From positions 121,365 to 185,364 of IMG/VR virus record IMGVR_UViG_2645727757_000001: a DNA stretch of 64,000 nt; one strand, written 5' to 3'. This document shows, one piece after another, positions 11,009 to 63,989 of this stretch. The notes beneath the pieces are model-generated. The model searched no databases and was not told where the DNA came from. It saw nothing but the letters and a program-made list of their open reading frames with translations. Both the position numbers and the translations under genes were made by a program. Origin of the DNA: a virus (taxonomy: Duplodnaviria; Caudoviricetes). Every line of letters begins with the position of its first letter. Position 1 is the first letter of the stretch.

Positions 11009-11097
11009 GATTGCATATCACCTCTTATGTATTTTCAAAATGTTATCTCTTAGTTATAGAGAAATTATAGAACATATTTTAATAAAACGTAAGGGGA

Positions 11098-11412
11098 TTT
11101 TCCCAAAACATTCTTACAACTTTACCAAAATGCTCTTATAAAAAATACAATAAAACAATACATTTTCCCAAAATACTCGTACAACTCTCCCAAAATACTC
11201 TCTTAAATTTATTACAAATCAATATATTTTCCCAAAACACTCTTATAAAAAATTATAAAATTTTGTAAAAAATCAATACATTTTCCCAAAATGCTCGTAT
11301 AACTTTCCCAAAACGCTCTTACTAAAATTGCATTGAAATTTTTTACATTTCCCCAAAATGCTCGTACAACTTTCCCAAAACGCTCGTACAACTCTCCCAA
11401 AATGCTCTTACT
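11098..11412 (+). repeat. Iteron array B-left: 10 copies of tttcccaaaaYRctcKta
   Basis: Doublets and a triplet with 22-bp period directly upstream of the Rep_3 gene. Confidence 0.88.
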
Positions 11413-11524
11413 AATTAGCAAAAATTCTAATAAAAATCATTAAAAAAATACCTTATATAAATCCCTTAAAGCATTGATATAACTAGGTTTATAGGGTATT
11501 GTAAATATATGTAAAATAATCACT

Positions 11525-11815
11525 ATATATAATTATATATATACTCTATTTAAATAAAAATAAAAGTAAATATAAATATTATTATATATAGATATATACT
11601 ATAAATTTTAATAATAAATATATATAAATAGATAAATAATATATATATAAATAATATTTAAATATATTATATATATATTTAATAATAATATATATTAATA
11701 TATATAAATATATATTAATTATTATATTATTATATTATATTATATTATTAATTATTATATTATTATATTATATTATATTATTAATTATTATATTAAATTT
11801 AATTATATGTTATAT
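11525..11815. other. Near-pure AT block (candidate DNA-unwinding element of the origin)
   Basis: Almost no G/C; tattatat tandem units; lies between two oppositely oriented iteron arrays. Confidence 0.7.
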
Positions 11816-11821
11816 AGCAAA

Positions 11822-11990
11822 TAAGAGTGTTTTGGGAAAACGACACTTAAAGTACGAGCGTTTTGGGAAAATTAATTATAAGTACGACTGTTTTGGGAAA
11901 ACAAAAACTAAAAGAGAGTGTTTTGGGAAAATGAAACACAAATACGAGCGTTTTGGGAAAATAAAATCTTAAAGAGAGCGTTTTGGGAAT
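11822..11990 (-). repeat. Iteron array B-right: 6 inverted copies at about 30-bp period
   Basis: gagYgttttgggaaa repeated near 11825, 11855, 11885, 11915, 11945, 11975; reverse complement of array B-left. Confidence 0.88.
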
Positions 11991-12426
11991 GCATATATAA
12001 ACTATAAAAATAAAACTACATCGCAGAAAGCTTTAAAATGCGTTTATAGAGGTTTTAAGTTTAATTAGACTAATTGCTCTAAATATATATTTAAAAGCTA
12101 TTACAAGCTAATTTTGAGCCATATAGAACTATACACATAAGATAGCTTGTATATGTATTTAAATTATTATAGTGAAATATATATATTGCATAAAGAATTT
12201 GCATGATAGGTTTACAAAGCTCAAAATTGCGTTCTAAGGCTATTTAAATTTTAGACATAAAAAACTACACCAACATATCTACTCAACGCTTAGAAGTCAA
12301 AAATAAGCGTTCTATAGGTAATGCTGGTGTTTCTTTCAGTAATAATTCAATAAGGCATTATATCTTTCGATATTATGTTATGCAGATAAGATGTTTTTAT
12401 GTATGGAATTTTTGAGAAATGAATTA

Positions 12427-31444: not shown

Positions 31445-33889
31445 ATGGTTGATTTCACTAAAAAATATGAAAATTTACCAGGTATGCTAATCGAGTACAA
31501 AGATGGTGGAATGGCTTTAAAGAAAAATACTTCAACTGTAAAAACTGATAGCATCTTGATATTAGGTACAGCATTAGACGGTCCTGTAATGGAACCTGTA
31601 GCTGTTGACGATGATAGTGCATATGCTCTATTCGGAGAATCAACTGATGCTTTAGGTGCTTCAAATGGTGCGACACTTTTAAAAGCTTATGCACAAGCAA
31701 GAAATATTGGGTGTACTGATATTAGACTAATGAGAGTTACAGGAAAAACTGCAAAAACTCAAATCAAGAGTGCTGCTAAAGAAGTAACTGAACTTGTTAG
31801 AATCGAAGAAGATTTCGCAACTGTATCTGGAAATGATGAAACAGTTATAACATTATCTAATGACAATATAAATGTTGAATCATTAAAGGTATATGTAAAA
31901 GGTGTTCTATTAAAAGGTGGATATGCTTTAAATGGTAAAAAACTTACTATTGAAGCTGGAGTTGCAGATGCTAACGCTGCTGTAACTGTTCAATATGCAC
32001 ATACAAGAAAAGTTCTTGTAAATGATGAAATGCATGAAGTAAGTTCAAACAAAACTATTACTTTAAATGCAACACCTAAAGAGGGTACTATTTTAATTTC
32101 AAATAATGAACAAGAAGTTGCAAGTTCAAAATATACTGTTGAAGGAAAATTAATTACTTTCACAGATGAAACAGTAAATCCTGCTGACATTTTAGCTGTT
32201 GATTATGAGTTACTTGAAGGTGAGGTTGTTCTTGTTACTGAAAACGGAACTCCAGAAGCTCCATTCTTAACTGCAACATCAAAAATCAAAAAACTTTTAA
32301 AAGAACAACCAAAGGAAGGTTCTATAAAACTTTATGTAAATGGTGTTCTATTTGATAACGATAAAGTTATTGAAGTAGGAGATGGAGAAGAAGGAAGCGA
32401 TGCTGAAATCTTACATGGTGGTAGTTTCGATGATGAATCAACTGAAACTATTCACGGAGGAACATTCGATGGCAAAAATAGAGCTATTCTAGTTAGAGTT
32501 AATCCTACAAGAAAGACTGTATTAGTTGACAAGAAGTACTTTAAAAGAGGCGATGAAATTACAGTTGAGTATTTAAATGAAAAAGTATCTAATGTAGAAC
32601 CAGTTATAGAATTTGAATCATATTTCGGTGGAGAAGTATATAACCAAGGATATGTTACTGTAAAGAATATAGTTAGTTCAAGCAGCGATAATGTAATTGG
32701 TAAAAAAGTTGTTATAACTGTTCCAGATACAAAATCTGTAGGTGCTACAGCAACATTAGAATATAGCTCACTTGACTATAAAACTTTTGGAGCTTTAGTA
32801 CAAGCTATCAACCAAGATGCCAATAATGGAGTATATAAAGCAACAACTTTATATGATGATGAATACACTATGGATTTAACATTATCTAGTTCATACTTTG
32901 TAGATGGGGAAGATGGTCTAAATCCTACTCCACAAGAAATGTTTGAAGCATTAACTGGAACAAAGGATAATGAAGGATTACTTCTAGAAAGTGGAGCTTT
33001 CCAACTTTTAGAAGGTTATCAAGTAGATTCTATAGTAGTAACTGGAGTTTATGCTGACCAAATCTTAGTAGGAAAGTTTAATAACTTTGCTTATGAATTA
33101 GCTTTATTATGTGCTGTTTTATCACATAGAAATAAAGCTACAATTGGATTTATAAGTGTATCTCCATGTAAGGACACATCATTAAGAGGCGTACAAGAAT
33201 ATACAGAAAAATTAGTTGCTATGAATAACTTATACTTCCTAAAAGATCAAAGTGGAAATATTATAAAAGATTCTAATGGCGATCCAATGGATTTAGGTAA
33301 ATTCATAAGTGTAGTAGCAGGACCAGAAATAGAACATACTGATTCTAAAATCGGTAGATTCTGGGGTAATCCAGCTGTTGACTACGCAGCTAAGAACTCA
33401 TTACTAGCTCCACAATCAGCTCCAACAAACAAGAAGATTGATGGAGTTAAGAAGTTAAAATTCAATTTCTCTAACTATCAATTAGATAGAATAACAGGAA
33501 ATAGAATAATAACATTCAGAAGTAAATTATCTGGAAATACAAATAATGTTGTAATCGTTGATGGTGTTACATCAGCACATCCAAATTCAGATTATACAAG
33601 AATAACTACTCAAAGAGTTATGAGATATGTTTCAGATGAAATAAGAGAAGCAGGTGAACCATTCCTTGGGGAACCAAATACAATAGAACAAAGAAATGCT
33701 CTAGCAAGTGCGATTTCTAAGAAATTATCTACTTGTAAAGAAGGTGGAGTAATAATTGATTATGCTTTCCAAATACTTTCAGATGCAAAATCTCAATTAT
33801 TAGGTGAAGCAAACATTGAATTATCAATAATTCCACCACAAGAATTAAGAAAAATTACAGCAGTAATGGGACTAAAAGCAAGTCTATAA
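31445..33889 (+). CDS. Contractile tail sheath protein
   Basis: NLPGMLIE, LILGTALDGP, RITTQRVM...EPFLGEPN, IIPPQELRKI. Confidence 0.85.
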   Translation: MVDFTKKYENLPGMLIEYKDGGMALKKNTSTVKTDSILILGTALDGPVMEPVAVDDDSAYALFGESTDALGASNGATLLKAYAQARNIGCTDIRLMRVTGKTAKTQIKSAAKEVTELVRIEEDFATVSGNDETVITLSNDNINVESLKVYVKGVLLKGGYALNGKKLTIEAGVADANAAVTVQYAHTRKVLVNDEMHEVSSNKTITLNATPKEGTILISNNEQEVASSKYTVEGKLITFTDETVNPADILAVDYELLEGEVVLVTENGTPEAPFLTATSKIKKLLKEQPKEGSIKLYVNGVLFDNDKVIEVGDGEEGSDAEILHGGSFDDESTETIHGGTFDGKNRAILVRVNPTRKTVLVDKKYFKRGDEITVEYLNEKVSNVEPVIEFESYFGGEVYNQGYVTVKNIVSSSSDNVIGKKVVITVPDTKSVGATATLEYSSLDYKTFGALVQAINQDANNGVYKATTLYDDEYTMDLTLSSSYFVDGEDGLNPTPQEMFEALTGTKDNEGLLLESGAFQLLEGYQVDSIVVTGVYADQILVGKFNNFAYELALLCAVLSHRNKATIGFISVSPCKDTSLRGVQEYTEKLVAMNNLYFLKDQSGNIIKDSNGDPMDLGKFISVVAGPEIEHTDSKIGRFWGNPAVDYAAKNSLLAPQSAPTNKKIDGVKKLKFNFSNYQLDRITGNRIITFRSKLSGNTNNVVIVDGVTSAHPNSDYTRITTQRVMRYVSDEIREAGEPFLGEPNTIEQRNALASAISKKLSTCKEGGVIIDYAFQILSDAKSQLLGEANIELSIIPPQELRKITAVMGLKASL

Positions 33890-33947
33890 TTTTAAAATAT
33901 TAATTCCTCCCTCTTCTTGGGGGAGGGTAAAGGAGATGTGAAACAGT

Positions 33948-35788
33948 ATGGCAAGTCCAACTATGAGTACATTAACAAGTTTTAGTGGTTCAGACCTTTT
34001 AGTAAGTTTCGCTAATAGAGTAGTAGGAGAACTACAAGCCTTATCTTGGGGTATTGAACGTGAATGTGCACCAATATTCACATTAGGTTCAGCAGATGCA
34101 AGATCATTCAGTAGAGGTTAGCTTTAGCCTCCTTCATACGGTGACGTGTGATGTAAAACTTCGTTAATTGCTGGGAAGTCCTAAAGCTCACAACACTACA
34201 AAGTAAGGATGAAATAAGCCTAAGCTTGAATGTTACGAAAGTAGAAAAAAGGTGTGAGATAGCAATAAGGTTAAATCCTAAGTTGCTTTATAATGGATAA
34301 TCAGCAGGAAAGTCCCGAATAGGGAAATCTTCAACGACTATCCCTTGGTATCTGAAATGGTACAATAGGAGTAGGGCTTAATACTATGTATTAAGTAGGT
34401 GAGAATCCTTTAAATCGAAATGCGAAGGGAGTTTGTTATGGCAACTAAGTTATTTGAAAAGAAATATACATTTAATGAAAAATTCCTATACACAGATAGT
34501 AATGAGCTATGGTACTTCTTAGGATTAGTAGCAGCAGATGGTTATGTTACTGAAGAAAGAATGGAATTAGTATTAAATGAAAAAGATTTACACATACTGG
34601 AGTTTTTTCAGAATATAATACAACCAGATAAACCTATATATCATAGAAAAAGTGTAAATGCTTATAAAATTGCAATAGATGATTATAAATTTGCAAAGCA
34701 TTTAAAGAAAATATTCTCTATGGAATCAAATAAAAAACATGAGGAATTAGTTTTTCCAGATGTTCCTAAAGAATATATAAAAGATTTTATAAGAGGATAT
34801 ATAGATGGTGATGGATGTATAACTAAATGTTCTGGTCAAAGAAATTTTCCGAAGTTAGGATATAAAAAAATATATCGAGGTGTAGAGTTAAAAATTTTAG
34901 GAAACGAAAATTTTCTACTTGAAATGGTAAATAAGCTACAAGAGATATATCCTAACAAAACAAAGAGTATAAGAAAAAAAGGAAAAGAAAATGTGTATGT
35001 TGTAAATTATAATTTCAAAGTTGCAGAGGGTATATTAAATGAATTATATAAAGATAGTAAAGTTCATTTAAAGAGGAAATATGAGAGATTTATATACCTT
35101 AAAAATAACAAAGTCTGTGATGTAGTCTATTCCCCTTAAAAATATCGGGAAACCGAGGGTGTAAAAGAAAAGAGCTATTGCTGGAAATATGCAATTCGCT
35201 ATGTTTGACCAAGATGCTGTAGTAAATGCACTACAAATGGTATGGGATAAAATAGCACCACCTGCAATGTATACAGCTGCCGGAAATCTAGCACTTAGAA
35301 AATCAGAAGATTTTTCAACAGTATTAGATTTATTAAACTGGAATAAGAAATCATCTGAAACAACTAATATAAGTGAAAATTCAGAAGCGTATGGTTTCTC
35401 TGGAACTAGTGCAATTAAACCTGGTTTAGTTGAAGGTTCAAATGGAGCACCAATAATTAATAATAATGAAATTACTGGATGGAATAAAGGTGATTCAGTT
35501 CACGTACCAGCAGGATTCTCACCAATTAGAGGGGAAAACATTCTTTATGCTGATACTCTTCCAGCATTTGATGTTACTATGACATATGCCAATGAATTTG
35601 GACAATGTGCGTTCCAAAAAATATATGATGTAACTATCCTTAATGAAAGCTCTGGTGTATCAGTTGATACCATAGTGACAGAAAAGAAATATACTTATGT
35701 TGCTAGAAGATTATCACCATTAATAAAAGGAATATACTCTAGAGAAGAAGGCGGCTTAATGAAGGGAATGTCACCTACAGGAGTTTAA
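33948..35788 (+). CDS. Tail tube protein, spliced (exon 1 33948..34118, exon 2 35168..35788; 263 aa)
   Basis: Exon 1 MASPTMSTLTSFSGSDL...APIFTLGSADARSFSRG joins in frame to KRAIAGNMQFAMFD; similar to the tube-like paralogue at 41923 (RGTRVVAGTMIF; DELPIFD vs DTLPAFD). Confidence 0.8.
34119..35167 (+). mobile_element. Group I self-splicing intron
   Basis: 5' exon ends in U with P1 GAGGU/GCCUC (U-G wobble); core elements AATTGCTGGGAA, AATCAGCAG, TCAACGACTA, GTAGTCT; ends in G at 35167; removal restores the frame. Confidence 0.9.
34420..35139 (+). CDS. Intron-encoded LAGLIDADG homing endonuclease (likely start 34438)
   Basis: Intact motifs YFLGLVAADG and FIRGYIDGDG. Confidence 0.9.
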   Translation: MRREFVMATKLFEKKYTFNEKFLYTDSNELWYFLGLVAADGYVTEERMELVLNEKDLHILEFFQNIIQPDKPIYHRKSVNAYKIAIDDYKFAKHLKKIFSMESNKKHEELVFPDVPKEYIKDFIRGYIDGDGCITKCSGQRNFPKLGYKKIYRGVELKILGNENFLLEMVNKLQEIYPNKTKSIRKKGKENVYVVNYNFKVAEGILNELYKDSKVHLKRKYERFIYLKNNKVCDVVYSP

Positions 35789-39342: not shown

Positions 39343-40278
39343 ATGGCTATAAAATTCCAAAAAATTATTATGAAAAATGGTAATAAAGAAAAATTACCAG
39401 AACTAGATATTGCAGAAGTTGGTATCTGTAACGATACAGAAGAATTTTTCTTTGGTTCTTCAAGCGGAAATGTGGAACTAGCCAAAAAAGATTTTGTCAA
39501 ACAAATTGAAGAAACTTTAAATGGAAAAATAGAAACTTCTGTTAAAGGAGAAAAAGGAGATAAAGGTGATCCAGGAGAAGCAGGACCACAAGGACCACAA
39601 GGTATTAATGGAACAGATGGTAAACAAATAGAACTTCAAAAAAGTGCAACACATTTACAATGGAGATATGCAGGTATAGGAGAATGGGCTGACCTTATAG
39701 CTTTAAGTGAATTAAAGGGAGAACAAGGTGTTAAAGGTGAAAAAGGAGAAACAGGATTACAAGGATCAAAGGGGGATAAAGGTGAAACTGGAGAACAAGG
39801 AGCTAAAGGCGAAAAAGGTGATCCAGGTATTGCACCAGAAGAAATTACAGCTATTTTAAATAGAATAACTGAATTAGAGAAAAAGGTTGCTGAATTGGGT
39901 GGAGGAAGTTCGCCAGAAGAATCATCTAGTAAACCTAATTTCTTAGGAATAATAGACTATAAAAATATAAATACAATAACTTATGAAGATTTAAATGTTA
40001 GTACAGTAAAAAAAGGACAAGTAGCTAAACCAGAAACAGTATATACACATACTGGAGGAACTATGCTAAATAAATCATCTATAATAGCTTTTCCTAAAGA
40101 ATACGGATCAATAACTGGAGTAGTTGATGGAGCTGGTATTTCAATAGCAGCAACATATGAATGGGCTGATGTTACATTGAATATACCAGAAATTGGAGAA
40201 GTTCAGTATGTAATAGGCGGAACTAAAGAGGAACTAGCTTACACTGATTCAGTAGCAGTTAAATGGCAAATCTCATAA
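39343..40278 (+). CDS. Collagen-like fibre protein 2
   Basis: [22 protein letters not shown]-terminal module, Gly-X-Y tracts, HLQWRY module. Confidence 0.75.
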
Positions 40279-40292
40279 ATAACATTATTTTA

Positions 40293-40332
40293 ATATGGTA
40301 CTGTAAATATAAACATACAGTACCATATTTTT
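40293..40332 (+). terminator. Intrinsic terminator
   Basis: atatggtactgta...tacagtaccatat plus T run. Confidence 0.65.
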
Positions 40333-40335
40333 ATA

Positions 40336-41190
40336 TTGTTTGGTATACTAAGGATGATTATATATAAAAAGGTGATGAAGATGGGAAATAAAATAAATGA
40401 ACCTTATGTTGGCAAATTAGTCAAGGAAAAGCAAAGAGAACGCTTTGAGGAAGATTTAAACCATGCTATTAAAATATATAAAAATAATGGTAAAATAACT
40501 GAAGAGTTATTCGATATTTGTTCAATTTTTGAAGATAAACATAAAAATACTTATTTAAATTGCGATGATATGTATATAAAAATGATGGATTTATATGATA
40601 CAGTAGCAAATAAAGAAATACCAGAAAAAATACCAAGTGTTTTTTTTGATGAATATAGTTCATTTTCATTTAGTATACTTAGAGAACATTTTATTAAGAT
40701 ACAAGGTTATCCATTCGTAACCAAGGAATGGATTAAAGAACTCTCAAAGTTGCTACGTGGAAAAAAAGTTTTAGAAGTTATGTGTGGATTAGGAACAATT
40801 TCATATGCTTTAAAAAATGAAGGAATAGATATAATAGCAACTGATGATTTATCTTGGAAAGAAACATGGAAAAATGAATATAATCACTATTGCGAAATAG
40901 AAGAATTAGATGCTATAAAAGCTATAGAAAAATACGGAAAAGATATTGATTATATAATAATGTCATGGCCACCATATGAAGATCCGATTGCGTATAAAGT
41001 GTTACAAAAAATGCGTGAAGTAAATAAAAATGCAGCTATTATTTATTTAGGAGAAGGAGATGGAGGATGCACAGGAGATAGATTATTTCATTATAGAGCT
41101 AATATAATAGAAAATGATATTATAGATAGTGTTAATTCAATTTATAAACCTTGGAAAATGATACATGATAGATTTATTTTAATTAAATAA
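40336..41190 (+). CDS. SAM-dependent methyltransferase-like protein (likely start 40381)
   Basis: VLEVMCGLG motif I, IATDD, MSWPPY, YLGEGDGGCTG. Confidence 0.7.
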   Translation: MFGILRMIIYKKVMKMGNKINEPYVGKLVKEKQRERFEEDLNHAIKIYKNNGKITEELFDICSIFEDKHKNTYLNCDDMYIKMMDLYDTVANKEIPEKIPSVFFDEYSSFSFSILREHFIKIQGYPFVTKEWIKELSKLLRGKKVLEVMCGLGTISYALKNEGIDIIATDDLSWKETWKNEYNHYCEIEELDAIKAIEKYGKDIDYIIMSWPPYEDPIAYKVLQKMREVNKNAAIIYLGEGDGGCTGDRLFHYRANIIENDIIDSVNSIYKPWKMIHDRFILIK

Positions 41191-41198
41191 GGGATGGA

Positions 41199-41354
41199 AA
41201 TGAAATATAAAATTTGGTTTAGTAAGTATATATCAGATAGATTAAGTGATGTTCTATCTTCTAGAGTTGTAATAGCTGATTCTAAAGAAGAGGCAATAAA
41301 AAAAATAAAAGCAATAACAAATGTTAATTATATTATAAGTATTGATGGATTTTA
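41199..41354 (+). CDS. Small hypothetical protein (about 51 aa), paralogue of the ORF at 53106
   Basis: MKYKIWFSKY...ADSKEEAIKKIKAITNVNYII resembles AKDEEAAIKKLREIRNVNYIL. Confidence 0.55.
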
Positions 41355-41392
41355 ATATTTACAAATATTATTAATAATGGTATATTATAATT

Positions 41393-41490
41393 GTTTCGTA
41401 TCTGTGTTGATTAGAACACGATTTTTTAAACTTAACTTTATGTATATAGAATACACCTGTATTAATAAATGCAGGTGTATTCTTATTTTT
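41393..41490 (+). ncRNA. sRNA array unit 1
   Basis: TTTACA(41358)-17-TATATT with TG extension; terminator agaatacacctgtatt/aatgcaggtgtattct plus T tract. Confidence 0.6.
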
Positions 41491-41540
41491 GAAATAAATC
41501 CCATATTGAAAAATATTTGGAAATATATTATAATTAATTA

Positions 41541-41637
41541 AGCCGATTTGTTAAAAATTATTTACCTTTTTTGTTTAGTATTATGCACCTACACCAACGC
41601 TTGGATAATGAAAATATTTCATAGTCTGGGCGTTTTT
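41541..41637 (+). ncRNA. sRNA array unit 2
   Basis: TTGAAA(41506)-17-TATAAT; terminator aacgcttgga...tctgggcgtt plus T tract. Confidence 0.6.
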
Positions 41638-41674
41638 GTATTGACAAAATTAACCAACTGATATAAAATAAATA

Positions 41675-41772
41675 TGATTTATTATCGTCTATGTTTTTTA
41701 AAGAATATTTCCCATGTGTTCTTTGAAGGCCTATTTAGTATTTTTATAAAAAATTTACTAAATAGGTTTTTT
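41675..41772 (+). ncRNA. sRNA array unit 3
   Basis: TTGACA(41641)-17-TAAAAT; hairpin with UUCCCAU loop; terminator cctatttagta/tactaaatagg plus T tract. Confidence 0.62.
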
Positions 41773-41808
41773 ACTTGAAAAAATTTACATTTTAATATAT
41801 AATCTAGG

Positions 41809-41890
41809 TAAGCTTGTACGTTATTTCCTAGAAACTCTTAATGAAGACTCCGCTAGATAATTAATTTTATCTGGCGGAGTTTTCATTTTT
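41809..41890 (+). ncRNA. sRNA array unit 4
   Basis: TTGAAA(41775)-17-TATAAT; terminator gaagactccgctagataa/ttatctggcggagttttc plus T tract. Confidence 0.62.
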
Positions 41891-41922
41891 AGGATATTAA
41901 TATAATAGGTAAATATTGTATA

Positions 41923-43197
41923 ATGTATATATATGGAACAACCATATTATTTAGAAATAAGGATTTTGATAATATGTTATATAACAAAAATAAGACATTT
42001 ACCGGAACAGATACTTTAGTATTTATAATTTTTCCTAATACAAAACCTATACTATTAGGGAGTTTAACTACTTTATCCTATTCATTATATAGACATAAAA
42101 CTCCTGTACCTCTTCTTGGTAGAATAAGCACAGGTGGATGCACTAGAGGAACTAGAGTTGTAGCTGGAACTATGATATTCACTCTTATAAATCAACATTG
42201 GGTTAATGAATTAGCTAATAAAGTAGGGTATATATCACAGTATAATAAAATAAAAGCAGATGAACTACCTATTTTCGATCTTATGATAGTAAGTGCAAAT
42301 GAATTCGGAAGTTCAGCAAGTGCATTTATTTATGGAGTTGATTTTACAGAAGAAGCTGGAGTTGTTTCTATTGAAGATTTAATGATGGAAAATACATTTA
42401 AATTTGTAGCAAGAGATATTGATATGTTCTACGAAAATGACTTTAACCAAGTAGAAAATAAAAGATTTGCTAATATAAATTCAATAATTGGCTATAGAGA
42501 AATGGAAGCAGCTAAAGAAATATATGTAGAACCTAAGAATATACAACTAGCTTTAATAGAAAAAGGATTTAATGTAAAACTTACTGGAACATATGATACT
42601 CAAACAATGGAAGCTGTAAGAACTATGCAAAAAAAAGCAGGGTTGCTACAAACTGGAGCAATAGATTCTTTCACAAGAAATTATTTATTTGAAAATAATA
42701 AAGCTCCTATTATAAATAAGAATAAAGAAGATGTAAATGTAAAAGATGAATACGGAAATACAATAGATTATATTAAGTACGGAGATTCAGTTTCAAATTA
42801 TATAGAAAATGAAAACAAACTAATAATCCATGATGGCTATATAGAATCTAATGAATTAATAGAAGAAAATTTTGCTATATCTTCAAATATGCAAGAAGGT
42901 AGTTTAAAGATAAATTATATTGAAATGATTAAAGGCATTTTAAAATTCAAAATAAGAAGTGATCTACCTGTAGAAGTAAGCTTAACTGGAATAAGCATAT
43001 TTAATAACGGAAATATAAGCATAACTAAAAAAAGTTTTAATTGTTTAGATTTATTATCAATAAACTCTTCAAGTATAAGTGAAGCTTTTATCTATAATGC
43101 AGAAAATAAATCTCTTCCTAGTAAAGTTGAAGTTATTCTTAGTATAGGTAATAAAAAGCACTTAAAATTTATTATAACTAATACGGGGAGGAACTAA
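41923..43197 (+). CDS. Tail tube-like domain fused to a peptidoglycan-binding domain (baseplate / tube initiator candidate)
   Basis: N-half parallels the tail tube (TFTGTD, LSYS, RGTRVVAGTMIF, DELPIFD, ANEFG, FVARD); LTGTYDTQTMEAVRTMQKKAGLLQTGAID PG-binding motif. Confidence 0.65.
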   Translation: MYIYGTTILFRNKDFDNMLYNKNKTFTGTDTLVFIIFPNTKPILLGSLTTLSYSLYRHKTPVPLLGRISTGGCTRGTRVVAGTMIFTLINQHWVNELANKVGYISQYNKIKADELPIFDLMIVSANEFGSSASAFIYGVDFTEEAGVVSIEDLMMENTFKFVARDIDMFYENDFNQVENKRFANINSIIGYREMEAAKEIYVEPKNIQLALIEKGFNVKLTGTYDTQTMEAVRTMQKKAGLLQTGAIDSFTRNYLFENNKAPIINKNKEDVNVKDEYGNTIDYIKYGDSVSNYIENENKLIIHDGYIESNELIEENFAISSNMQEGSLKINYIEMIKGILKFKIRSDLPVEVSLTGISIFNNGNISITKKSFNCLDLLSINSSSISEAFIYNAENKSLPSKVEVILSIGNKKHLKFIITNTGRN

Positions 43198-43199
43198 TT

Positions 43200-43781
43200 A
43201 TGGGCCAACAGACTACTCAAAAATATATTCCTACGGAATACGCAAGAGAAAAAAATACTTATGTAGAAGAATTTTTTAGTGCTCCAGATGTTGAGATAAC
43301 AATAAATGATGAAAATATTAAGTACATTAATGCAATACAATTCGCAATAAATGAACAATTAAAACCAGTCTATGGGTATCAATCAAGAACATATGATGAT
43401 GTTGCTGTAGGTACTAGACTTGTTACTGGCGTTATTAAAGTTCCTGTTAAGAATAATCGTGAAAATGAGTTAGCAGACTGGAAAGATACTGTTCCAACTT
43501 TACTTACAGAAGAGGAAGTTAAAAACAAAAGACCTTCTTGGGTTATAGATACATCACTTTTAGCTGATGTTCATTATAGAAAGTCAGTAGATAATGAAAA
43601 AATATACGGTAAATTATTATCAGATGCTTATGTATTTTTAGAACCAACATTAGATAATATTATCGGGTTATATGATGAAAATACAATGATAGAAATTTCA
43701 AATGAATTTGATAATTGCTATGCCATAAAAAATGATAACTTAGCAGGTTATATTGATAAAAGAAATATTAAAAGAATTTAA
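43200..43781 (+). CDS. Tube-like / baseplate protein with C-terminal SH3-like domain
   Basis: FFSAPDV, PVYGYQSRTYDDVAVGTRLVTG; C-terminal AGYIDK. Confidence 0.5.
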   Translation: MGQQTTQKYIPTEYAREKNTYVEEFFSAPDVEITINDENIKYINAIQFAINEQLKPVYGYQSRTYDDVAVGTRLVTGVIKVPVKNNRENELADWKDTVPTLLTEEEVKNKRPSWVIDTSLLADVHYRKSVDNEKIYGKLLSDAYVFLEPTLDNIIGLYDENTMIEISNEFDNCYAIKNDNLAGYIDKRNIKRI

Positions 43782-46887: not shown

Positions 46888-47226
46888 GTGGATGTGATGG
46901 ATATGAAGGTTAAAGATATAAATATATATAATGAATGGAAAGAAAAAAATAATGATATGTACGGATCATGTGTATTTAGATACGTTGAAAAATGGGCTGA
47001 TATGATGGAGGAAGAGATTTCTAAAGGTTCTAAAATACACGAAATAGCTGGTGAATTATCATTTAAAACCAATATAGATATAACAGGTTTTATGTATGGA
47101 TGTGCTGTAAGTATACTTGCTGAATGCTGGATATACGGAGAAGAATTAAGACAATGGCATAATAAAGAATATAATTATGATGGTGATGGTACAGTCAATC
47201 CAGCGGTACTAATAATAAATAAATAA
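46888..47226 (+). CDS. Phage hypothetical protein
   Basis: ITGFMYGCAVSILAECWIYGEELRQWHN...NPAV. Confidence 0.7.
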   Translation: MDVMDMKVKDINIYNEWKEKNNDMYGSCVFRYVEKWADMMEEEISKGSKIHEIAGELSFKTNIDITGFMYGCAVSILAECWIYGEELRQWHNKEYNYDGDGTVNPAVLIINK

Positions 47227-56329: not shown

Positions 56330-57049
56330 ATGCTTACCAATTTACAACTTGCGGTAATTAAAGAATATGCTAAAGGCGAAGATATAATCTATTTAAATAT
56401 TCAAGACAGGGAATTTGTTTTTAGAACTTTAGGAGTAGGAGAATACTTAAATATAAAAAAATGTATAAATACTGAAAAAGATTTTGAAGATGCAGTATGT
56501 CAAGCTACTTTATTATATCCTGAAGATCAAAATATAGTATTTGGTTTATATCCGTTAGCTGGAATATCTTCGATAGCTTGTGAGGAAATAATAAAACATT
56601 CTGGTTTGGATGGAATGGATAATATAAGAGAAAGAATTATCCGTAGAAAAGAGGAAATGAATATTTTCCATAACCAATGTATGAATTTAATTAAAGCTGC
56701 TTTTCCAGAATTGTCATATGAAGAAATTGAACAATATTCTTGGTGTAAATTAGTTGATGTTGCAGTAAGAGCTGAAAGTGTTATGGCAATAAGGGGTAGT
56801 ACCTATAGACTTGCAGATATGAGTAAAGTAAATGATGATGATGTAGAAACTACTGAAATGCAAGAAAACGTTGAAGAAATTAAAGAGAAAACTACTAGAG
56901 ATTATTTAGAAGAAGGCATCGAACCAATGCTATATTATTCAGAAGAATTACTATCAGAAAACGGAAAAGAAATATTGGATAATCCGTTTATCGGTGGTAT
57001 TAGGTGGAACGAGGAAGTGGTAATAAATGAAATCTCAAAACAATTCTGA
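56330..57049 (+). CDS. Probable tail assembly chaperone 2 (paralogue)
   Basis: FVFRTLGVGEY...VCQATLLYP...AGISSIACEEIIKHSG. Confidence 0.55.
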   Translation: MLTNLQLAVIKEYAKGEDIIYLNIQDREFVFRTLGVGEYLNIKKCINTEKDFEDAVCQATLLYPEDQNIVFGLYPLAGISSIACEEIIKHSGLDGMDNIRERIIRRKEEMNIFHNQCMNLIKAAFPELSYEEIEQYSWCKLVDVAVRAESVMAIRGSTYRLADMSKVNDDDVETTEMQENVEEIKEKTTRDYLEEGIEPMLYYSEELLSENGKEILDNPFIGGIRWNEEVVINEISKQF

Positions 57050-60000
57050 ATTTGATTTAACTAGAAAACAAAGAAAAGAAGGATATACAACTGAAAAGGA
57101 AAATTTAGAAGAAAGTCCACTTAAAAAAGCTATAATTGCAGCTATGATTGGTGTTGGTGGTATAGGAGCTTATAAAAGTGGTATGCTTAAAAAACCAATA
57201 AGTAAATTAATTGAATTTGCGGGAGATTATCAAAGTTTATCTCCTGCTGTTGGTACTGCTTTTAAATCTTGGGCTAATGAAACAGATAAATTTCAAAATT
57301 CAGTTTTAAGAAAAAAGTTTAGGCATACCATTTCAGATGCTTTCACAGAAAAAGCACCATTTGGAAAATATGTAGAATCTGTATTTGAAGATACTAAAAA
57401 AGACGTGAAATATTTAAAGAAAACTACAAAAAAGTATGTTGAGAAAAGAATGAAGAAAAATATGAGAGGTGAGTTTTCTTCATTAACCAATACAGAGTTA
57501 TCATATAATATAAACAAAATGGATGAAATAGCTGAAAGATTCGATAATAGAAGTGCAAGAAAAGCTAAAGATATAATGACTAGGGATTTTCTTAAAAATT
57601 TTACTGTATCAGCAGAAGATTCAGCAAAAAAGATGAAAAGAACTGGCTATAGAACAGCAACTATAGATGATATGTTTGAAGTTGGAAGAGCTGACAATGG
57701 TAAGCTATATTTAATAAATAAACATGATAATTTTATGTTTGATATAGATACAAGAAAAAAATTAGCTATATTTTTAAATGAAACAAAAGCTGTAGATAGT
57801 AATGGTAAACATATATTAAATAAAAAGAATATTCCTAAATCAATTTTTGAAACTGGTGATTATAAAAACATAATGATGGATAAAAACCTAGTTATAAATG
57901 AGTTTGGTGAAGTAGCTGATATGAGGCAAAATATCAAGGACATAAATTCTTTTTTAAGAGATGCAGCTAATGAATTTAAAATACCTTTTGTTGGGATAAA
58001 TCCACTAAAATTCTTTGGAGTTGGAAGAGCTGGAGTAAGAGAGCAAATGTTTGAAACATTACATCCTAATACTGTACAACCAGGTATTACTGGTGTTGCT
58101 GGTAGACACAAATTAAAGGATTTAAAAGAATTTGGTAATAAGAGATTATTATTTTCAAATGGAACAGCATATAAATTCAGCAGTGATCTACAGGACTTTG
58201 AAAAAGTAGCTGATGGATTAACTCTTAGAGAATATAATCATAAAAATAATATTGATAGTAAATTAAATGACTTTAGAAAGATGTCTGGAATAGAACTTAG
58301 AAAGTATGAAGAATATACAAGAGAAGATGGAGCATTTAAATATTACAAAGGTAAACTAAGTAAATTCTTAGACTTAGGAAGACAAGACACAAAGAGTAAT
58401 AAATATGAAGAATCACTTATAAATTCTATAAGTCCTAATAATATTATAGAAAAAGCATCTGATAAATTATTTTCTAAATTAAATTTTACTAAGCCAAAAG
58501 TAGAAAACATTGAAATATATTCAGCATTTGGTGATATAGATAATGGAGCTTATAACGAAAAATTATATGTAGCAATTAAAAAACATATAAAATGGAAAGA
58601 TGTTATGGACCCATTAAATAATACAACCATAAAAGAATATTTTTCACAATTCTTTAAAGGCAGAAAAGACGTATCTAATATAACAGAAAGCACATTAGCT
58701 ACATACCATCTTTTTGAGCGTATGAACCAAGCATTTAAACCATTTGGTATAGCACTAGGTTCTGATTCGATGGGAAGCACTAAAGATATTATATCTGGAT
58801 TACTACTAAAAAGATTATTGCCTGTTTATATGGTAGGACAAGGCATAGAGTATATGACATATTTAACAGAGAGAGATGACGGTGAAGGTGGAACTACCAA
58901 TATTAAAAAAGGAGTTGCAAATGTAGTTAAAGATATTGACCTTGGCGTAACTAAGGTTAAAGACGCAACTGGTATAACAAGTTTATTTAAAGGTTTAAAA
59001 GATTCAATGCCAGGTTATGAATCATTCTCTGAATTACCTTTAATTAAAAATCTTGGTCTTGACAGAACATATGAGGAACAAAAAGAATGGTACAATTCTG
59101 GAATGGAAGCTATAAGAAAGGGAAGATATTGGGACTTAGGGAATTGTGTTGTTCCTTGGCAAGAAATACAAACTGGATATGGTGAAATAACTCTTGCAAA
59201 CAATATAAATATAAATGATAATGTAATAACTCACGAAGGAATATTAAGAAAAGTTTTAGAGGTGGTAACAAGATACATGAAAACTAATGAAAAAGCATTA
59301 ACTATAGAAACACACACTACATTTTTAACTAACACAACAACTGACAACCATCCTTACTATGCTGTAAAGAAAAAAAGATGTCCTTCAAGCTCAAATGATG
59401 ATTGTAGACCAGACAGGAAGTCTAAAGAATGTGATAAATGTAGATATAAAGTATGTAATTTAAGATATGAATGGAATCCAGAATGGATTTATGCAAGGGA
59501 TTTAGAAAAAGGTGATTATTTAGCATATCCTAGAATTAAGATAAAAAACGAATATAAATATATAAATGGAAAATTAGCAGATTATGATTTAGGGTATTTA
59601 TTAGGAATATACCTAGCGGAAGGTAACATTCATACTTGGCATAAAAATGGTAATGTTTATGGAATAGAACTTGCATTGAATTCAAGTGAAACTGAAATAG
59701 CAAATAATATTAAAAATATATTAGATAAATATTTCCCAAATACAAATACAAATATATATGATTATAAAGATGGAACAAAAAGAATAAGAGTAAGGAATTT
59801 ATCAAATGAAGTTGCAGAATGGTTTAAAAATACTTTATATAATGATAATAAAGAAAAAATATTCGTTAGAGATATATATAAATATAATGAATCATTTATA
59901 AAAGCTGTAATTACTGGATTAATAGATGGAGATGGTCATTATCAATTTGCTAAAAATTCATTTTCACTACATTATACAAGCTCAAGGATAGAATATGTAA

Positions 60001-63000
60001 TTATGCTTAGAAATATATTATTTACATTTGGAATACCTAATAGTCTGGTAAAACATGACTATAAAGATAAAGATGGAAGCGTGAAGTATAAAGGATATAG
60101 AATATGTGTTACTGGTGATGCAGCTATAGAATTAAATAATATATTAAAATTATATAAAACTAAAAATAATAATTATAATAAAAGAAATATAGTTAGCAAG
60201 TACACTATAGTTGATGATAATTATGTATATATTAGAATAAAAGATATATATGATAGCGGATATAATGGAATAGTTTATGATTACAGAATAGAAGAATCAC
60301 ATTCATTCTGTTCATTGTCATCAATAATGCATAATACAGCATTTATAGGAGGAAAAGTTTCCCATTTTGAGCCTAATTGGTATCGTAGAACAATGGGTGA
60401 TGCAGATTTTTCTGAAAATAAATATGGAAGTAGAAAAGAATATTTTGAAAATACTTGGTATCCTAACCCTGTTAATCCTTTTGCTCCTATAAAACATTTT
60501 TTAACTGACAAGTATCATTATGAAGAGAAACATTATTATGATAGACCTTATCTTCTTACATCACCAGAATTTGAAAATGTTCCTTTAGTTGGGCCAGTAC
60601 TTAGTTCAACTGTTGGAAGAGTAATAAAACCACAAGTTAAGATGCATGAAGAGTATTGGAATAGTCCAAAAGGAACAAACTCTTTAAAACAGGATTCATA
60701 TATTATGGATTATAATACTGATGAAAGAGGAAATGAAAATGTTCTAAATGATTCGGAACTTATAACTAATAATAACATTGAGAATGTTAGTGCAGGAAAT
60801 TCAAATATTTTAAACATTAAACCTAAAGGCTCAACACTTGGAGTTGTTGGCCAAAATTTATCTGATGATGGAAAAGAAATCTATGTTACTAACTCTGGTA
60901 ATATAGGATTTATTGATATAAATAGAGATAACTATACAAAAATAAAAAAAGAATTAAAAACTAAATCTCCAAAAAGTATGTTGAGTATAAACAATGCTCC
61001 TAATAGAGAGCCTATCTATAATTTATTAGGTAGAAATGAAGACGGAGAATTAGTAAACCAAAATGGTGATGTAATAATAAATCCTAATGAACTAAAGAAT
61101 TCATTAAAAGATCAGTATATGGATACTACAAATGTACTAGGTTTATATGGATTCTTAGCCAACACATTTGTTACTGGAAATCTTGGAGAAGATCAGGATA
61201 TTATTGATACTCCATCATATGCTTTTTCTTATAACAAAGAGTTTTGGGATGCAAATATGGGAGGATTAGGTGGAGATATATCTGAAATCTTTAGAAGATT
61301 TATACAGAAAAGAAGAACTGATGTTGACTATTATAATCCTATTAGAAACACTCAACCAGACTTCATGCCTGGCGAAAATTATTTCCAAGATTTCAAACAT
61401 GGCGATCCATTCTCAAAAATTTCCAATGGAGAATTAAGACTTGCAGGAACTCCATATGAAAAAATATGGGGAATAAAAGATCCATTAGAATTAAGAATAG
61501 GTTCTTCATTTTTAGGTAAATCAAAAGATGAAATAGTAGACCATTTCCTTAAAAACGATACTATAACTGATGAAGGTTTAGTTGATATAGTTGAAACTGG
61601 TACTAAAATGCATGAGGAAATTGAACAGGAATGGTTAAAAGACGGTTTTGCAGTTGAAGTTGAAGGAAAAATTGAAGATGAAGAAAATAAAATATTAGGT
61701 TTCTATGATGCGAAAGTAATTGATCCTACAGCAAAAAATGGAGTAGGTATTGTTGATATTAAAACAATATCTGATAAAGGTTTTAATCAGGTAGTAGAAA
61801 CTGGAGAAGCAAAAGACCTTCATAGAAGACAAGTTAATTATTATCTTTGGGCTACTGGTAATGACAAGGGATATGTTCATTATGTAAATAGAGATGATCC
61901 TAATAAGAGATATACTGTAGGATTTGACTATGATGAAGATATGCTTGAAGATAGCTTAAATAATGTTAAGGATGCAAGAAATGAAGTTTTGCAAAGATAT
62001 TATAACAATGAAATATCTAGAGGCGATTTATATAAACCTATAGACCGTTATAGAATACTTGCAGATGTTGCTCCTTGGTCACAAGAATTTTCAGAAATGC
62101 AAAATGTGTTAAGAGCATCTGGTATGGATGAAGAAACTAAAAAAGAATATGATGAAATAAATGAAAGAGTTAAAGTCCAAAAGAAAGCTCATAACACTTA
62201 TGAATATAGATATAAATACGCTGACGTTTCTAGCATAAACGCTAAAATAACTAAAGTGAAAGGGAATCAATTCTACACAGATTATGGTGGAGAAGAAAGA
62301 GCTATAAAATTTGCTGGTATTAATTTAGGTGTTGTTGGAAATGCAGAAGAGAAAAAGATAATTGAGAATATATCTAGTAATATAAAAGAAGGTGCAAGTG
62401 TAAAATTACTTGTAGACGAAGATAGCATAAGAAGAGATAAATCAAAAAGCATTAAAGCTGTTGTTATAGATTCTAAAGGAACTAACCTTAATAAAGAGTT
62501 TTTAAATCAAGGTGTAGCAGAAGAGGACAAGGACGATTGGAGTGCTCCTTCTGTTCATGCAAGATATAGTAAAACGCAAATAGCTTTTGGTTCAATATGG
62601 GAAAGATTTGCACATATGGATACACCTTTTCATACAAAATTCTTGCAAGTAAGAAGTGCAACGGAAGACTATAAGAGAAGAGAAATTTATGGTGTTGATT
62701 TTGCAAGATGGCAAGAACCTATAGAAGACTTCTTAAAACCTGCAATGTATAGTGCTATAGAAAGACCTACTGGAGTTTTATTCGGTGCTTTGCTTGGTAG
62801 TTTGTTTGGAAAAAGAAGATTTGGTAAGTATGCTGGTGCAATAGCTGGTATGGGTGCTGTGTTAGTTGGAAGAGGCGTTGTACAAACAAAAGAAGCTATC
62901 ACAGGAGAAAAGTGGATTCCAGAACCAGTAAGAAAAGAACGTGAACTTGTAGAATATATGGATGTCTTAAAATACGTTAAAAATCAAAATCTCTATAATC

Positions 63001-63989
63001 ATTATAAGAAGAGAGCTTTAGAAGAAGAAAATTTCGATGTTGATGAATATGAAAAGAATATCCAAGAAGAGGCTGACAAAAGAGAGCACATTACTAATTC
63101 TTTAAAAAAGGGAAAGAAATTTATAAAAGAAGATTATGAAGAAGCAAATGAAAAGAAAAAGAATTATGAGGAAAATAAAAAGCCAACTAAACATGAAAAG
63201 ACAGGTAATGAATTCTTAGATAAAATTCTTAATACAAAATATGAGATAAGTAAATTTTTATATGATTTTAGATTAAACAGGCTTACTGAAAAAGCTCGTG
63301 AAAAGAGAGAAGACTTTAGAGAAGTTAATAAAAAGATAAATGGTGTTGAATCTTATAGAAATGTTGATATGCTACCAGAACTAGCAACTAAGGCTTTAGA
63401 ATACAAGGAAAAAGCTGAAAAAACAATATATGGATATGATGTTGGAGAACCACTTACTAATATATTAGCTGCATTACCTAAAATAGATAGAGATAGAATA
63501 AATGACTTTATAAACGCTCCAGAAGAAGAAAGAGAGGAACTTTTAGAGATAGCTCCAGACTATGTTAAAAGAGTTTTACAAAGTTCATGGGGATTAGAAG
63601 TAGATGAAAAACCTTCATTAGAGAAATATTTCAAAAGACATCAACTTCCAGACGAATCTTGGGAAGGTTGGCAAGAGGATGTTGATTTAGAATCAATAAA
63701 AGTAAAAATGATTAATAAAGAAGGGTTAGATTATTCTGATTTTAATGTTTGGGATGATGATGTTGAAAGAGCTGATATGCTTGAAGATATTCCACTTCCA
63801 ACTGTTAATTTTAGAAATAACGCTATAAATATAAAGAACAGATTAAATACGTTGCTAAATGATATTGGAATACAGGATGTGAAAATTGATTATACTTTCA
63901 GCAGTTCTAACGCCAATGTTGATTTGAATATTCAACATAGTAATAGAGATCAAGTTGAAGAAAAAATAAATAATCAAAAGTTCTTGTAG
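57027..63989 (+). CDS. Giant tape-measure-position protein with intein, PD-(D/E)XK nuclease and SNase-like domains
   Basis: 2320 aa after chaperones; hydrophobic Gly-rich segments; GTKMHEEIE...GFYDA...IVDIKT...QVNYY; ITKVKG...IKFAGIN...NLNKEFLNQGVA. Confidence 0.7.
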   Translation: MKSQNNSEFDLTRKQRKEGYTTEKENLEESPLKKAIIAAMIGVGGIGAYKSGMLKKPISKLIEFAGDYQSLSPAVGTAFKSWANETDKFQNSVLRKKFRHTISDAFTEKAPFGKYVESVFEDTKKDVKYLKKTTKKYVEKRMKKNMRGEFSSLTNTELSYNINKMDEIAERFDNRSARKAKDIMTRDFLKNFTVSAEDSAKKMKRTGYRTATIDDMFEVGRADNGKLYLINKHDNFMFDIDTRKKLAIFLNETKAVDSNGKHILNKKNIPKSIFETGDYKNIMMDKNLVINEFGEVADMRQNIKDINSFLRDAANEFKIPFVGINPLKFFGVGRAGVREQMFETLHPNTVQPGITGVAGRHKLKDLKEFGNKRLLFSNGTAYKFSSDLQDFEKVADGLTLREYNHKNNIDSKLNDFRKMSGIELRKYEEYTREDGAFKYYKGKLSKFLDLGRQDTKSNKYEESLINSISPNNIIEKASDKLFSKLNFTKPKVENIEIYSAFGDIDNGAYNEKLYVAIKKHIKWKDVMDPLNNTTIKEYFSQFFKGRKDVSNITESTLATYHLFERMNQAFKPFGIALGSDSMGSTKDIISGLLLKRLLPVYMVGQGIEYMTYLTERDDGEGGTTNIKKGVANVVKDIDLGVTKVKDATGITSLFKGLKDSMPGYESFSELPLIKNLGLDRTYEEQKEWYNSGMEAIRKGRYWDLGNCVVPWQEIQTGYGEITLANNININDNVITHEGILRKVLEVVTRYMKTNEKALTIETHTTFLTNTTTDNHPYYAVKKKRCPSSSNDDCRPDRKSKECDKCRYKVCNLRYEWNPEWIYARDLEKGDYLAYPRIKIKNEYKYINGKLADYDLGYLLGIYLAEGNIHTWHKNGNVYGIELALNSSETEIANNIKNILDKYFPNTNTNIYDYKDGTKRIRVRNLSNEVAEWFKNTLYNDNKEKIFVRDIYKYNESFIKAVITGLIDGDGHYQFAKNSFSLHYTSSRIEYVIMLRNILFTFGIPNSLVKHDYKDKDGSVKYKGYRICVTGDAAIELNNILKLYKTKNNNYNKRNIVSKYTIVDDNYVYIRIKDIYDSGYNGIVYDYRIEESHSFCSLSSIMHNTAFIGGKVSHFEPNWYRRTMGDADFSENKYGSRKEYFENTWYPNPVNPFAPIKHFLTDKYHYEEKHYYDRPYLLTSPEFENVPLVGPVLSSTVGRVIKPQVKMHEEYWNSPKGTNSLKQDSYIMDYNTDERGNENVLNDSELITNNNIENVSAGNSNILNIKPKGSTLGVVGQNLSDDGKEIYVTNSGNIGFIDINRDNYTKIKKELKTKSPKSMLSINNAPNREPIYNLLGRNEDGELVNQNGDVIINPNELKNSLKDQYMDTTNVLGLYGFLANTFVTGNLGEDQDIIDTPSYAFSYNKEFWDANMGGLGGDISEIFRRFIQKRRTDVDYYNPIRNTQPDFMPGENYFQDFKHGDPFSKISNGELRLAGTPYEKIWGIKDPLELRIGSSFLGKSKDEIVDHFLKNDTITDEGLVDIVETGTKMHEEIEQEWLKDGFAVEVEGKIEDEENKILGFYDAKVIDPTAKNGVGIVDIKTISDKGFNQVVETGEAKDLHRRQVNYYLWATGNDKGYVHYVNRDDPNKRYTVGFDYDEDMLEDSLNNVKDARNEVLQRYYNNEISRGDLYKPIDRYRILADVAPWSQEFSEMQNVLRASGMDEETKKEYDEINERVKVQKKAHNTYEYRYKYADVSSINAKITKVKGNQFYTDYGGEERAIKFAGINLGVVGNAEEKKIIENISSNIKEGASVKLLVDEDSIRRDKSKSIKAVVIDSKGTNLNKEFLNQGVAEEDKDDWSAPSVHARYSKTQIAFGSIWERFAHMDTPFHTKFLQVRSATEDYKRREIYGVDFARWQEPIEDFLKPAMYSAIERPTGVLFGALLGSLFGKRRFGKYAGAIAGMGAVLVGRGVVQTKEAITGEKWIPEPVRKERELVEYMDVLKYVKNQNLYNHYKKRALEEENFDVDEYEKNIQEEADKREHITNSLKKGKKFIKEDYEEANEKKKNYEENKKPTKHEKTGNEFLDKILNTKYEISKFLYDFRLNRLTEKAREKREDFREVNKKINGVESYRNVDMLPELATKALEYKEKAEKTIYGYDVGEPLTNILAALPKIDRDRINDFINAPEEEREELLEIAPDYVKRVLQSSWGLEVDEKPSLEKYFKRHQLPDESWEGWQEDVDLESIKVKMINKEGLDYSDFNVWDDDVERADMLEDIPLPTVNFRNNAINIKNRLNTLLNDIGIQDVKIDYTFSSSNANVDLNIQHSNRDQVEEKINNQKFL
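59145..60335 (+). mobile_element. Intein (397 aa) with LAGLIDADG homing endonuclease
   Basis: N-junction N|CVVP, block B TTDNHPYY, YLLGIYLAEG and ITGLIDGDG, block F VYDYRIEESHSF, C-junction MHN|T. Confidence 0.92.

Follow-up and report, generated by a model that had tools for sequence, protein, structure and literature searches.

A row of four unrelated promoter–terminator units before a phage tail-tube gene: candidate small-RNA genes at a plastic junction

Small RNAs of phages and prophages (PMC4104026), promoter-proximal terminated RNAs, and terminator/promoter cassettes that serve gene shuffling are already known, and phage small RNAs have been described mainly as single genes or as homologous families in a few model prophages. 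Here we analyze a gene-free gap of about 620 bp in a tailed-phage genome (IMG/VR virus record IMGVR_UViG_2645727757_000001; 185,364 bases, estimated 86% complete, ~27% GC), in which four consecutive units, each consisting of a host-type promoter, a short body and a terminator, precede a tail-tube gene. Unless stated otherwise, positions refer to the window, the 64,000-nucleotide stretch under analysis (bases 121365–185364 of the record). A head-to-tail row of four unrelated units lacking open reading frames (ORFs), with one body swapped between relatives, was not found in our full-text searches of open-access papers and preprints.

One close parallel is the promoter-early stem-loop (PeSL) element of T4-type phages, described as a compact terminator stem-loop joined to a strong host-type promoter, located in plastic regions, shielding late virion genes from spill-over transcription and flanking DNA that is replaced between close relatives (PMC2839356, PMC4122927). 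The array resembles PeSLs in this build, in lying at a plastic site before late genes that it may shield, and in the replacement of flanked DNA, here the body of unit 1. PeSLs are reported in the same sources at about 50 copies per genome of a recognizable repeat, each followed by a Shine–Dalgarno (SD) sequence and an ORF. In the array, by contrast, four joints stand together at a single site, share no motif apart from the promoter hexamers and have no ORFs between them, and its phage is of Firmicute type and unrelated to T4. A BLAST search of the array against its own genome for a repeated motif of this type returned self matches only, and none of promoters 1–4 is followed by an SD-bearing ORF; only a fifth promoter precedes a gene.

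The PR′–tR′ region of lambdoid phages (6S RNA/StxS) likewise combines a strong constitutive promoter with a terminator ~100–200 nt further on, ahead of the late genes, and its short RNA can act as a regulator in trans (PMC7547250). As described there, it is a single unit tied to the Q antiterminator and a DNA site (PMC7547250), unlike the four heterologous units here, which have no shared site and no convincing Q homologue in the genome. The anti-sRNAs AsxR and AgvB from prophages of enterohaemorrhagic Escherichia coli are also ORF-less, possess their own promoter and terminator and occupy a late-region insertion site; they are described as homologous families in convergent pairs, bound by Hfq and proven by crosslinking and Northern blots (PMC4104026), whereas the array holds four unrelated co-directional units, known here from sequence alone. 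The LhrC1–4 genes of Listeria follow one another head to tail, every gene having a separate promoter and terminator, and their UCCC loop motifs bind ribosome-binding sites; unit 3 of the array has such a loop. LhrC1–4 are reported as near-identical sibling copies under one regulator (PMC4132741), and the array bodies are without similarity to one another.

The gap extends from the stop codon of a 53-codon gene at 41355 to the ATG of the tube gene at 41977. An original prediction, made before any database search, had placed in it four sigma-A-type promoters on the + strand, with 17-bp spacers and at intervals of 130–150 bp. All four are found at those places, agreeing with the consensus hexamers at 10, 11, 11 and 11 of 12 positions, and the distances from one −35 box to the next are 148, 135 and 134 bp. 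A fifth, weaker promoter had been missed.

41358..41386, + strand: promoter 1, TTTACA/17-bp spacer/TATATT, 10 of 12, with a TG upstream of the −10 box
41506..41534, + strand: promoter 2, TTGAAA/17-bp spacer/TATAAT, 11 of 12
41641..41669, + strand: promoter 3, TTGACA/17-bp spacer/TAAAAT, 11 of 12
41775..41803, + strand: promoter 4, TTGAAA/17-bp spacer/TATAAT, 11 of 12
41897..41924, + strand: fifth promoter, before the tube gene, TTAATA/16-bp spacer/TATAAT, 10 of 12

The fifth promoter probably drives the tube gene; there is no terminator between the two. Each of the four units is closed by a stem-loop and a T tract, as had been proposed. The hairpins come from our own scan for hairpins with a T tract; a second listing gave terminator 1 only.

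41448–41483, + strand: terminator 1 stem (41449–41482 in the scan), −20.1 kcal/mol, then a T tract
41598–41632, + strand: terminator 2, −13.6 kcal/mol, then a T tract
41730–41766, + strand: terminator 3, −12.5 kcal/mol, then a T tract
41848–41879, + strand: terminator 4, −20.3 kcal/mol, with a T tract; the full 21-bp stem spans 41840–41887 (inverted repeat I5)

From the end of the −10 box to the end of the stem, units 1–4 measure 96, 98, 97 and 76 nt, and the following −35 box begins 8–22 nt past the preceding stem, which bears out the tight succession of terminator and promoter seen at the outset. Terminator 1 would, in addition, close the upstream two-gene operon, a role not previously pointed out: since promoter 1 begins 3 nt past the stop codon of that operon, no other terminator is available to it. 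A stretch of 22 nt upstream of the unit 1 start (41368–41389) shows 82% complementarity to the terminator 1 left arm (41447–41468). Only transcripts of the upstream operon carry this stretch, so terminator 1 could be weakened for those transcripts.

The RNAs predicted from these boundaries are given below, with folding z-scores calculated for each against 200 shuffles.

41393..41490, + strand: predicted RNA 1, ~98 nt; 5′ hairpin and U6 run, then terminator 1; z −6.0
41541..41638, + strand: predicted RNA 2, ~98 nt; U-rich, largely unpaired 5′ part, then terminator 2; z −1.8
41676..41772, + strand: predicted RNA 3, ~97 nt; 13-bp hairpin at 41696–41728, then terminator 3; z −5.9
41810..41889, + strand: predicted RNA 4, ~80 nt; 30-nt unpaired 5′ part, then the 21-bp terminator hairpin; z −8.2

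The pyrimidine tracts noticed earlier are indeed present. RNA 2 contains UUUACCUUUUUU (41561–41572) and RNA 4 contains UUUCCUAG (41824–41831), both in the unpaired 5′ parts, and UUCCCAU (41709–41715) forms the apical loop of the RNA 3 hairpin. A C-rich seed with UCCC in a loop is confined to unit 3 (TCCC at 41710; this 4-mer occurs at 0.40 per kb on the + strand); CCU tracts occur in units 2 and 4 but not in unit 1.

The four-unit anatomy is real and not a product of chance. Among 3000 dinucleotide shuffles of 41356–41976, none had at least three sites at 11/12 or better (mean 0.067) and none had at least five at 10/12 or better. Three of the genome's seven + strand promoters at this level (at least 11/12) lie within 300 bp, in the array. 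Of 24 compact + strand terminator-like hairpins in the genome, four belong to the array; these four include the two most stable compact T-tract hairpins on the + strand of the 185-kb genome. Alternation of + strand promoters and terminators was seen in no other of the 20 gaps that exceed 200 bp. Genome-wide, 13 distinct promoter-to-terminator pairs were found (14 table rows), four of which make up the array. Single ORF-free pairs were observed elsewhere at 12649–12500 (−) of the window and at 57849–57693 (−), 66520–66615 (+) and 77392–77499 (+) of the genome; one such pair outside the array is located just upstream of the integrase gene, and about four would be expected by chance.

The four units have only their promoter positions in common. 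No direct repeat longer than 12 nt occurs in 41150–42000, and pairwise alignment of the bodies gives z-scores from −0.86 to 1.48. The earlier view that the bodies are unrelated, and form neither a tandem repeat nor a CRISPR array, thus holds; type III antitoxin repeats were rejected on the same ground, namely the lack of like-sequence units. Rfam yielded no family at gathering score in the window. The best sub-threshold match in 41150–42050 is NsiR1 (RF02399; 20.3 bits against a cut-off of 39, E 0.22), falling on terminator 4, and the other matches in the region are terminator-like. The NsiR1 repeats of cyanobacteria form a tandem small-RNA array of near-identical copies under one regulator. 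ARAGORN detected no tRNA or tmRNA genes in the window.

Contigs of relatives from four public runs (X1, X2, X3 and X8) were compared over 40000–43600. X1 has short contigs identical to the window and is not regarded as independent, since these may come from the source sample. X2, X3 and X8, belonging to three studies, contain relatives at ~92–95% identity. One X2 contig spans 41492–43600 with 121 differences in 2109 positions (5.7%), one X3 contig covers 41492–42348 with 38 in 857 (4.4%), and one X8 contig covers 41669–41926, that is, units 3–4 and the fifth promoter, with 14 in 258 (5.4%). Units 2–4 (units 3–4 in the X8 contig) remain collinear with the tube gene. For the tube gene itself the divergence is 48 in 1085 (4.4%), and for a methyltransferase-like gene upstream of the array it is 54 in 674 and 69 in 773 (8.0–8.9%). 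Single-nucleotide indels inside the units, among those listed, are at 41566 and 41831, in unpaired 5′ parts, and at 41863, in a terminator loop.

Body 1 is swapped in these close relatives, which had gone unnoticed before.

41390..41491, + strand: swapped segment, comprising the transcribed body and terminator of unit 1; 76 other letters stand in its place

One contig each of X2 and X3 joins 41389 to 41492 through the replacement, and X8 has a loose end behind 41389, at the left edge of the swap. The exchange leaves the −10 box and the next promoter region in place. The swapped body is flanked by mutually reverse-complementary stretches in the promoter 1 and 2 regions (41355–41383 and 41498–41526; 79% over 29 nt); this complementarity may be due to chance, since 51 inverted pairs occur in 851 AT-rich bases. 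In run X2, loose ends were also observed before 41506 and behind 41541. They suggest another contig that matches promoter 2 only and is flanked by unrelated sequence, although each end may come from a different record. The promoter 2 sequence may be present elsewhere in the X2 assembly.

More distant searches returned no counterpart of the array. The phage GenBank collection had no match to the 741-bp query in a distant blastn search, and three DNA patterns (terminator 4, unit 3 and unit 2) had none in IMG/VR, where near-identical records may lie outside the searched set. With the same restriction, the methyltransferase-like protein and the sheath protein had no relatives in IMG/VR, and the tube protein had one, at 46% identity. 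The tube protein has no relative in GTDB genomes, and JGI metagenomes provided only the same distant relative as IMG/VR, G122 (112,616 bp, 50% GC, 51% complete), with no DNA match to the array. The only three-hairpin cluster of G122 was considered as a counterpart and rejected, because a 169-codon ORF encloses it. A search of one Clostridium perfringens genome produced 16 matches, 21–47 nt long (best E 0.0065), none of unit length. A search across the genus (121 genomes, 117 scored, at most five candidates each) found 50 genomes with a match at E ≤ 0.001. The 63 matches listed are 22–101 nt long and none spans a unit: 53 fall on promoter 2 or on the terminator 3/promoter 4 segment, six on promoter 3 plus the beginning of unit 3, three on terminator 1 and one on terminator 4. 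The best of them (79% over 68 nt) was rejected as a homologue, being an unrelated AT-rich terminator.

With roughly even confidence, we favor the reading that the four units are independent of one another, that the sigma-A RNA polymerase of the host transcribes each of them, and that the resulting ORF-less RNAs are the selected products. The polymerase would start ~7 nt past each near-consensus promoter and stop at the intrinsic terminator of the same unit, releasing RNAs of ~98, 98, 97 and 80 nt. Each composite joint (a hairpin, a T tract and the next −35 box within 8–22 nt) would prevent transcription from the upstream accessory genes and from the strong promoters themselves from entering the late tail-tube operon, which would matter for a phage able to persist in a carrier state. 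The joints may double as conserved flanks for exchanging bodies; the replaced body 1 of close relatives points to this. The RNAs themselves, a kind of 'RNA morons', would use their unpaired, pyrimidine-rich 5′ parts to act in trans. We infer the transcription, the RNA ends and stability, the action in trans and the targets from this anatomy.

Several observations lead us to favor the RNAs as selected products: strong promoters with only ~90 nt to express have been kept in relatives, three bodies are equal in length within 1 nt, divergence of the bodies is, on our reading, no higher than that of the tube gene, and in one case an entire body has been exchanged as an exact module. UCCC loop motifs are described as pairing with ribosome-binding sites in small RNAs of low-GC Gram-positive bacteria (PMC4132741), and UUCCCAU in unit 3, a C-rich loop of this kind, could by analogy do the same. 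The original prediction was right about separate, same-strand, host-type promoter–terminator units; the functions it assigned to them (translation silencer, antitoxin mimic or defense decoy) found no support and are speculation.

Other results weigh against the RNAs being selected products. With 213 phage translation start regions as targets, the predicted pairing did not surpass that of shuffled RNAs: the best duplex of unit 3 (−28.0 kcal/mol) was equalled by 7 of 120 shuffles and that of unit 4 (−23.3 kcal/mol) by 1 of 20. Matches of units 3 and 4 to the start regions of two paralogues with several helix-turn-helix (HTH) motifs, at 6395 and 8464, are leads only. Unit 2 folds no better than shuffles (z −1.8), and the location of three out of three indels in unpaired positions is not significant because about two-thirds of all positions lie outside stems. 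A tract of recent recombination, and not constraint, could be behind the low divergence, and if the bodies can be replaced freely they may just as well be spacers without a function. No homologue of any body was found in phage GenBank, IMG/VR or the Clostridium searches.

The main rival to the small-RNA reading is that the units are punctuation only, which we consider possible though less than probable. They would then be real regulatory cassettes at a plastic junction, comparable to PeSLs, in which the ~55-nt bodies are either neutral spacers or remnants of small genes since lost, and any short RNAs are by-products with no role. T4-type cassettes are described as insulating late virion genes and mediating replacement of the intervening DNA (PMC2839356, PMC4122927), and body 1 has been exchanged precisely between two promoter regions. 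The array also stands where an accessory block (an intron, fiber genes and the methyltransferase-like gene) meets a core gene, the sheath and tube genes being only 76 bp apart in the distant relative G122, and neither targets nor homologues of the RNAs were found. On the other hand, three strong same-direction promoters with no product would be costly and expected to decay, and units 2–4 have been kept at 4.4–5.7% divergence. Three bodies of the same length within 1 nt are unlike random scars, no SD-bearing ORF follows any of the four promoters as it does in PeSLs, and the cassette is not repeated elsewhere in the genome.

A more far-reaching version of the small-RNA reading, which we put forward only tentatively and regard as somewhat doubtful, is a 'small-RNA cassette rack'. 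Here unrelated RNA genes would be lined up between terminator–promoter joints that serve as recombination linkers, and would be swapped among related phages, body 1 being an instance.

It is improbable, in our view, that the array is a cis-acting gate for the late tube operon, similar to lambda PR′–tR′. Constitutive promoters would be terminated nearby in the lysogen, and on induction a phage antiterminator would allow read-through into the tube gene, four copies raising the output. A strong constitutive promoter with a nearby terminator before late genes is the signature of Q-type control, and the short RNA of such a leader can gain a small-RNA role (PMC7547250); the phage, moreover, looks temperate and plasmid-like. 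A candidate antiterminator is a protein with several HTH motifs (4337–5359, − strand), scoring 27.2 bits against Pfam Phage_antitermQ (PF06530; cut-off 26). However, no stretch of this match passes alone, and the HTH segment also matches eight other HTH families. A site-dependent antiterminator predicts a shared element in the promoters or leaders, and nothing is conserved beyond the hexamers; the tube gene already has the fifth promoter in front of it, and that promoter is not followed by a terminator. The protein belongs to a set of four tandem paralogues of ~340 residues each (4337–8464, − strand), three of which have several HTH motifs of the resolvase or sigma region 4 type.

Less probable still is a reading in which the units specify micro-proteins, or a type I toxin plus an antisense RNA. 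The gap does contain + strand ORFs of 54, 37 and 34 codons, the 37-codon one being hydrophobic, as well as − strand ORFs of 39, 29 and 21 codons and a − strand promoter-like site at 41554–41527 (11/12). Yet all of these ORFs lack an SD-like motif, and no ORF of at least 8 codons inside the predicted transcripts has one, which precedes 142 of the 213 called genes and occurs in 12% of random 15-mers, and the longer frames in the transcripts (30, 29 and 19 codons) run through the terminator without a stop. Six small gap ORFs matched PHROG no better than E 0.056, and the exact products of seven small ORFs are absent from ~15 billion predicted proteins. The original statement that the gap holds no convincing ORF is therefore upheld. 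Base composition on the + strand differs as well: the array has T 0.42 and A 0.34, compared with A 0.42 and T 0.30 in the surrounding coding DNA. A scan of the array revealed no − strand terminator, and together with the missing SD motifs and the frames that cross terminators this speaks against a type I toxin–antitoxin pair.

A chance arrangement in AT-rich sequence, or an assembly artefact, is scarcely credible: promoter-like sites do occur at chance level in the wider region (28 at 9/12 or better against 27.0 expected, at 27% GC) and genome-wide (22 at 11/12 or better against 13–27 in 10 Markov simulations), but no local shuffle reproduced the promoter count, folding is far better than in shuffles for all RNAs except RNA 2, strict alternation is confined to the array, independent contigs of other runs bridge units 2–4, and run X1 has contigs identical to the window.

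The genes on either side of the array are as follows.

40381..41190, + strand: methyltransferase-like accessory gene; ORF listed from 40336, likely start 40381
41194..41355, + strand: small gene of 53 (or 51) codons, ending 3 nt ahead of the promoter 1 −35 box
41977..43197, + strand: tail-tube-family gene with a C-terminal peptidoglycan-binding domain (phrog_34314, phrog_9206; Pfam PG_binding_1)

The methyltransferase-like protein reaches feature scores of 0.96–0.97 to Atlas clusters automatically named SAM-dependent methyltransferase, where its version begins at residue 16 of the product listed from 40336. It matches phrog_19090 only in PHROG and has no significant match in PDB (best E 0.29). 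The 53-codon gene product belongs to no Pfam family, has no named or informative relative, and matches phrog_278 weakly (E 0.0046). The tube gene is the first late gene downstream of the array. Its protein is related to ORF141 of phage 0305phi8-36 and to a 'tail tube protein' of KLEB27-3, and homology begins at residue 3–5 of the reading from 41977; an alternative ATG at 41923 falls inside the −10 box of the fifth promoter.

In the window, ~8 kb separates the sheath and tube genes. This insert includes a LAGLIDADG gene in an intron-like insert inside a first tube paralogue, two collagen-like fiber genes, the gene of a 724-residue protein, the methyltransferase-like gene and the 53-codon gene, so that the array forms the boundary between the accessory block and the core tube gene. 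The first tube paralogue (33942–35788, +) is apparently split by the intron-like insert: ORF 33942–34121 resembles the tube N-terminus by eye, ORF 35189–35788 matches tube residues 90–160, and the LAGLIDADG endonuclease ORF lies between them at 34420–35139. No Rfam intron model matched in 33700–35400 in a scan at E up to 1. Further split genes were observed in L010 at 2262–4757 and 5852–10232 and in the window at 57027–63986; RecA is found in two ORFs flanking a LAGLIDADG ORF, DNA polymerase III alpha in two ORFs with adjoining HNH ORFs, and a 2320-residue protein contains an intein with a LAGLIDADG domain.

The phage setting assumed from the start is borne out by PHROG and Pfam matches and by the kinship of the sheath and tube proteins to those of phages (34–40% identity to Bacillus phage 0305phi8-36 and Moorella phage MTATph1, which are distant kin). 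The genome encodes an integrase, a Rep3 initiator adjoining iterons and a ParM-like protein, on account of which the phage looks temperate and plasmid-like.

9836–11008, − strand: Rep3-type initiator gene, adjoining the iteron clusters
11084–12005: two opposed clusters of iterons ~30 bp apart, with the core TTTTGGGAAAA and an AT-rich stretch between them

The iteron region is probably a plasmid-type replication origin, and the array was rejected as an origin, since the Rep3 iterons are located at 11084–12005. Pfam scans of 151 larger proteins detected neither a phage RNA polymerase nor a complete sigma factor, which fits reliance on the host polymerase. The sole match of the endolysin in a collection of species genomes is a Clostridium perfringens contig (52% identity), a weak pointer to a Clostridium-like host. 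The tail genes are followed by a series of small genes, one of which (46888–47223, +) matches the Pfam family Tad4, a type I Thoeris inhibitor (E 6.8e-38).

If the favored reading is true, phages would be able to collect and shuffle RNA genes in the same way as small accessory protein genes, and terminator–promoter composites would act as shuffling joints outside the T4 group as well. A cassette rack, if it exists, would be an RNA counterpart of moron and anti-defense gene islands, expressed by the host polymerase from a carrier-state phage-plasmid and reprogramming host or phage translation. The locus offers a compact, directly testable case, with predicted 5′ and 3′ ends for all four RNAs and a single natural swap. 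Even if the RNAs prove inert, it would still be a clear example of stacked insulation before a late structural operon.

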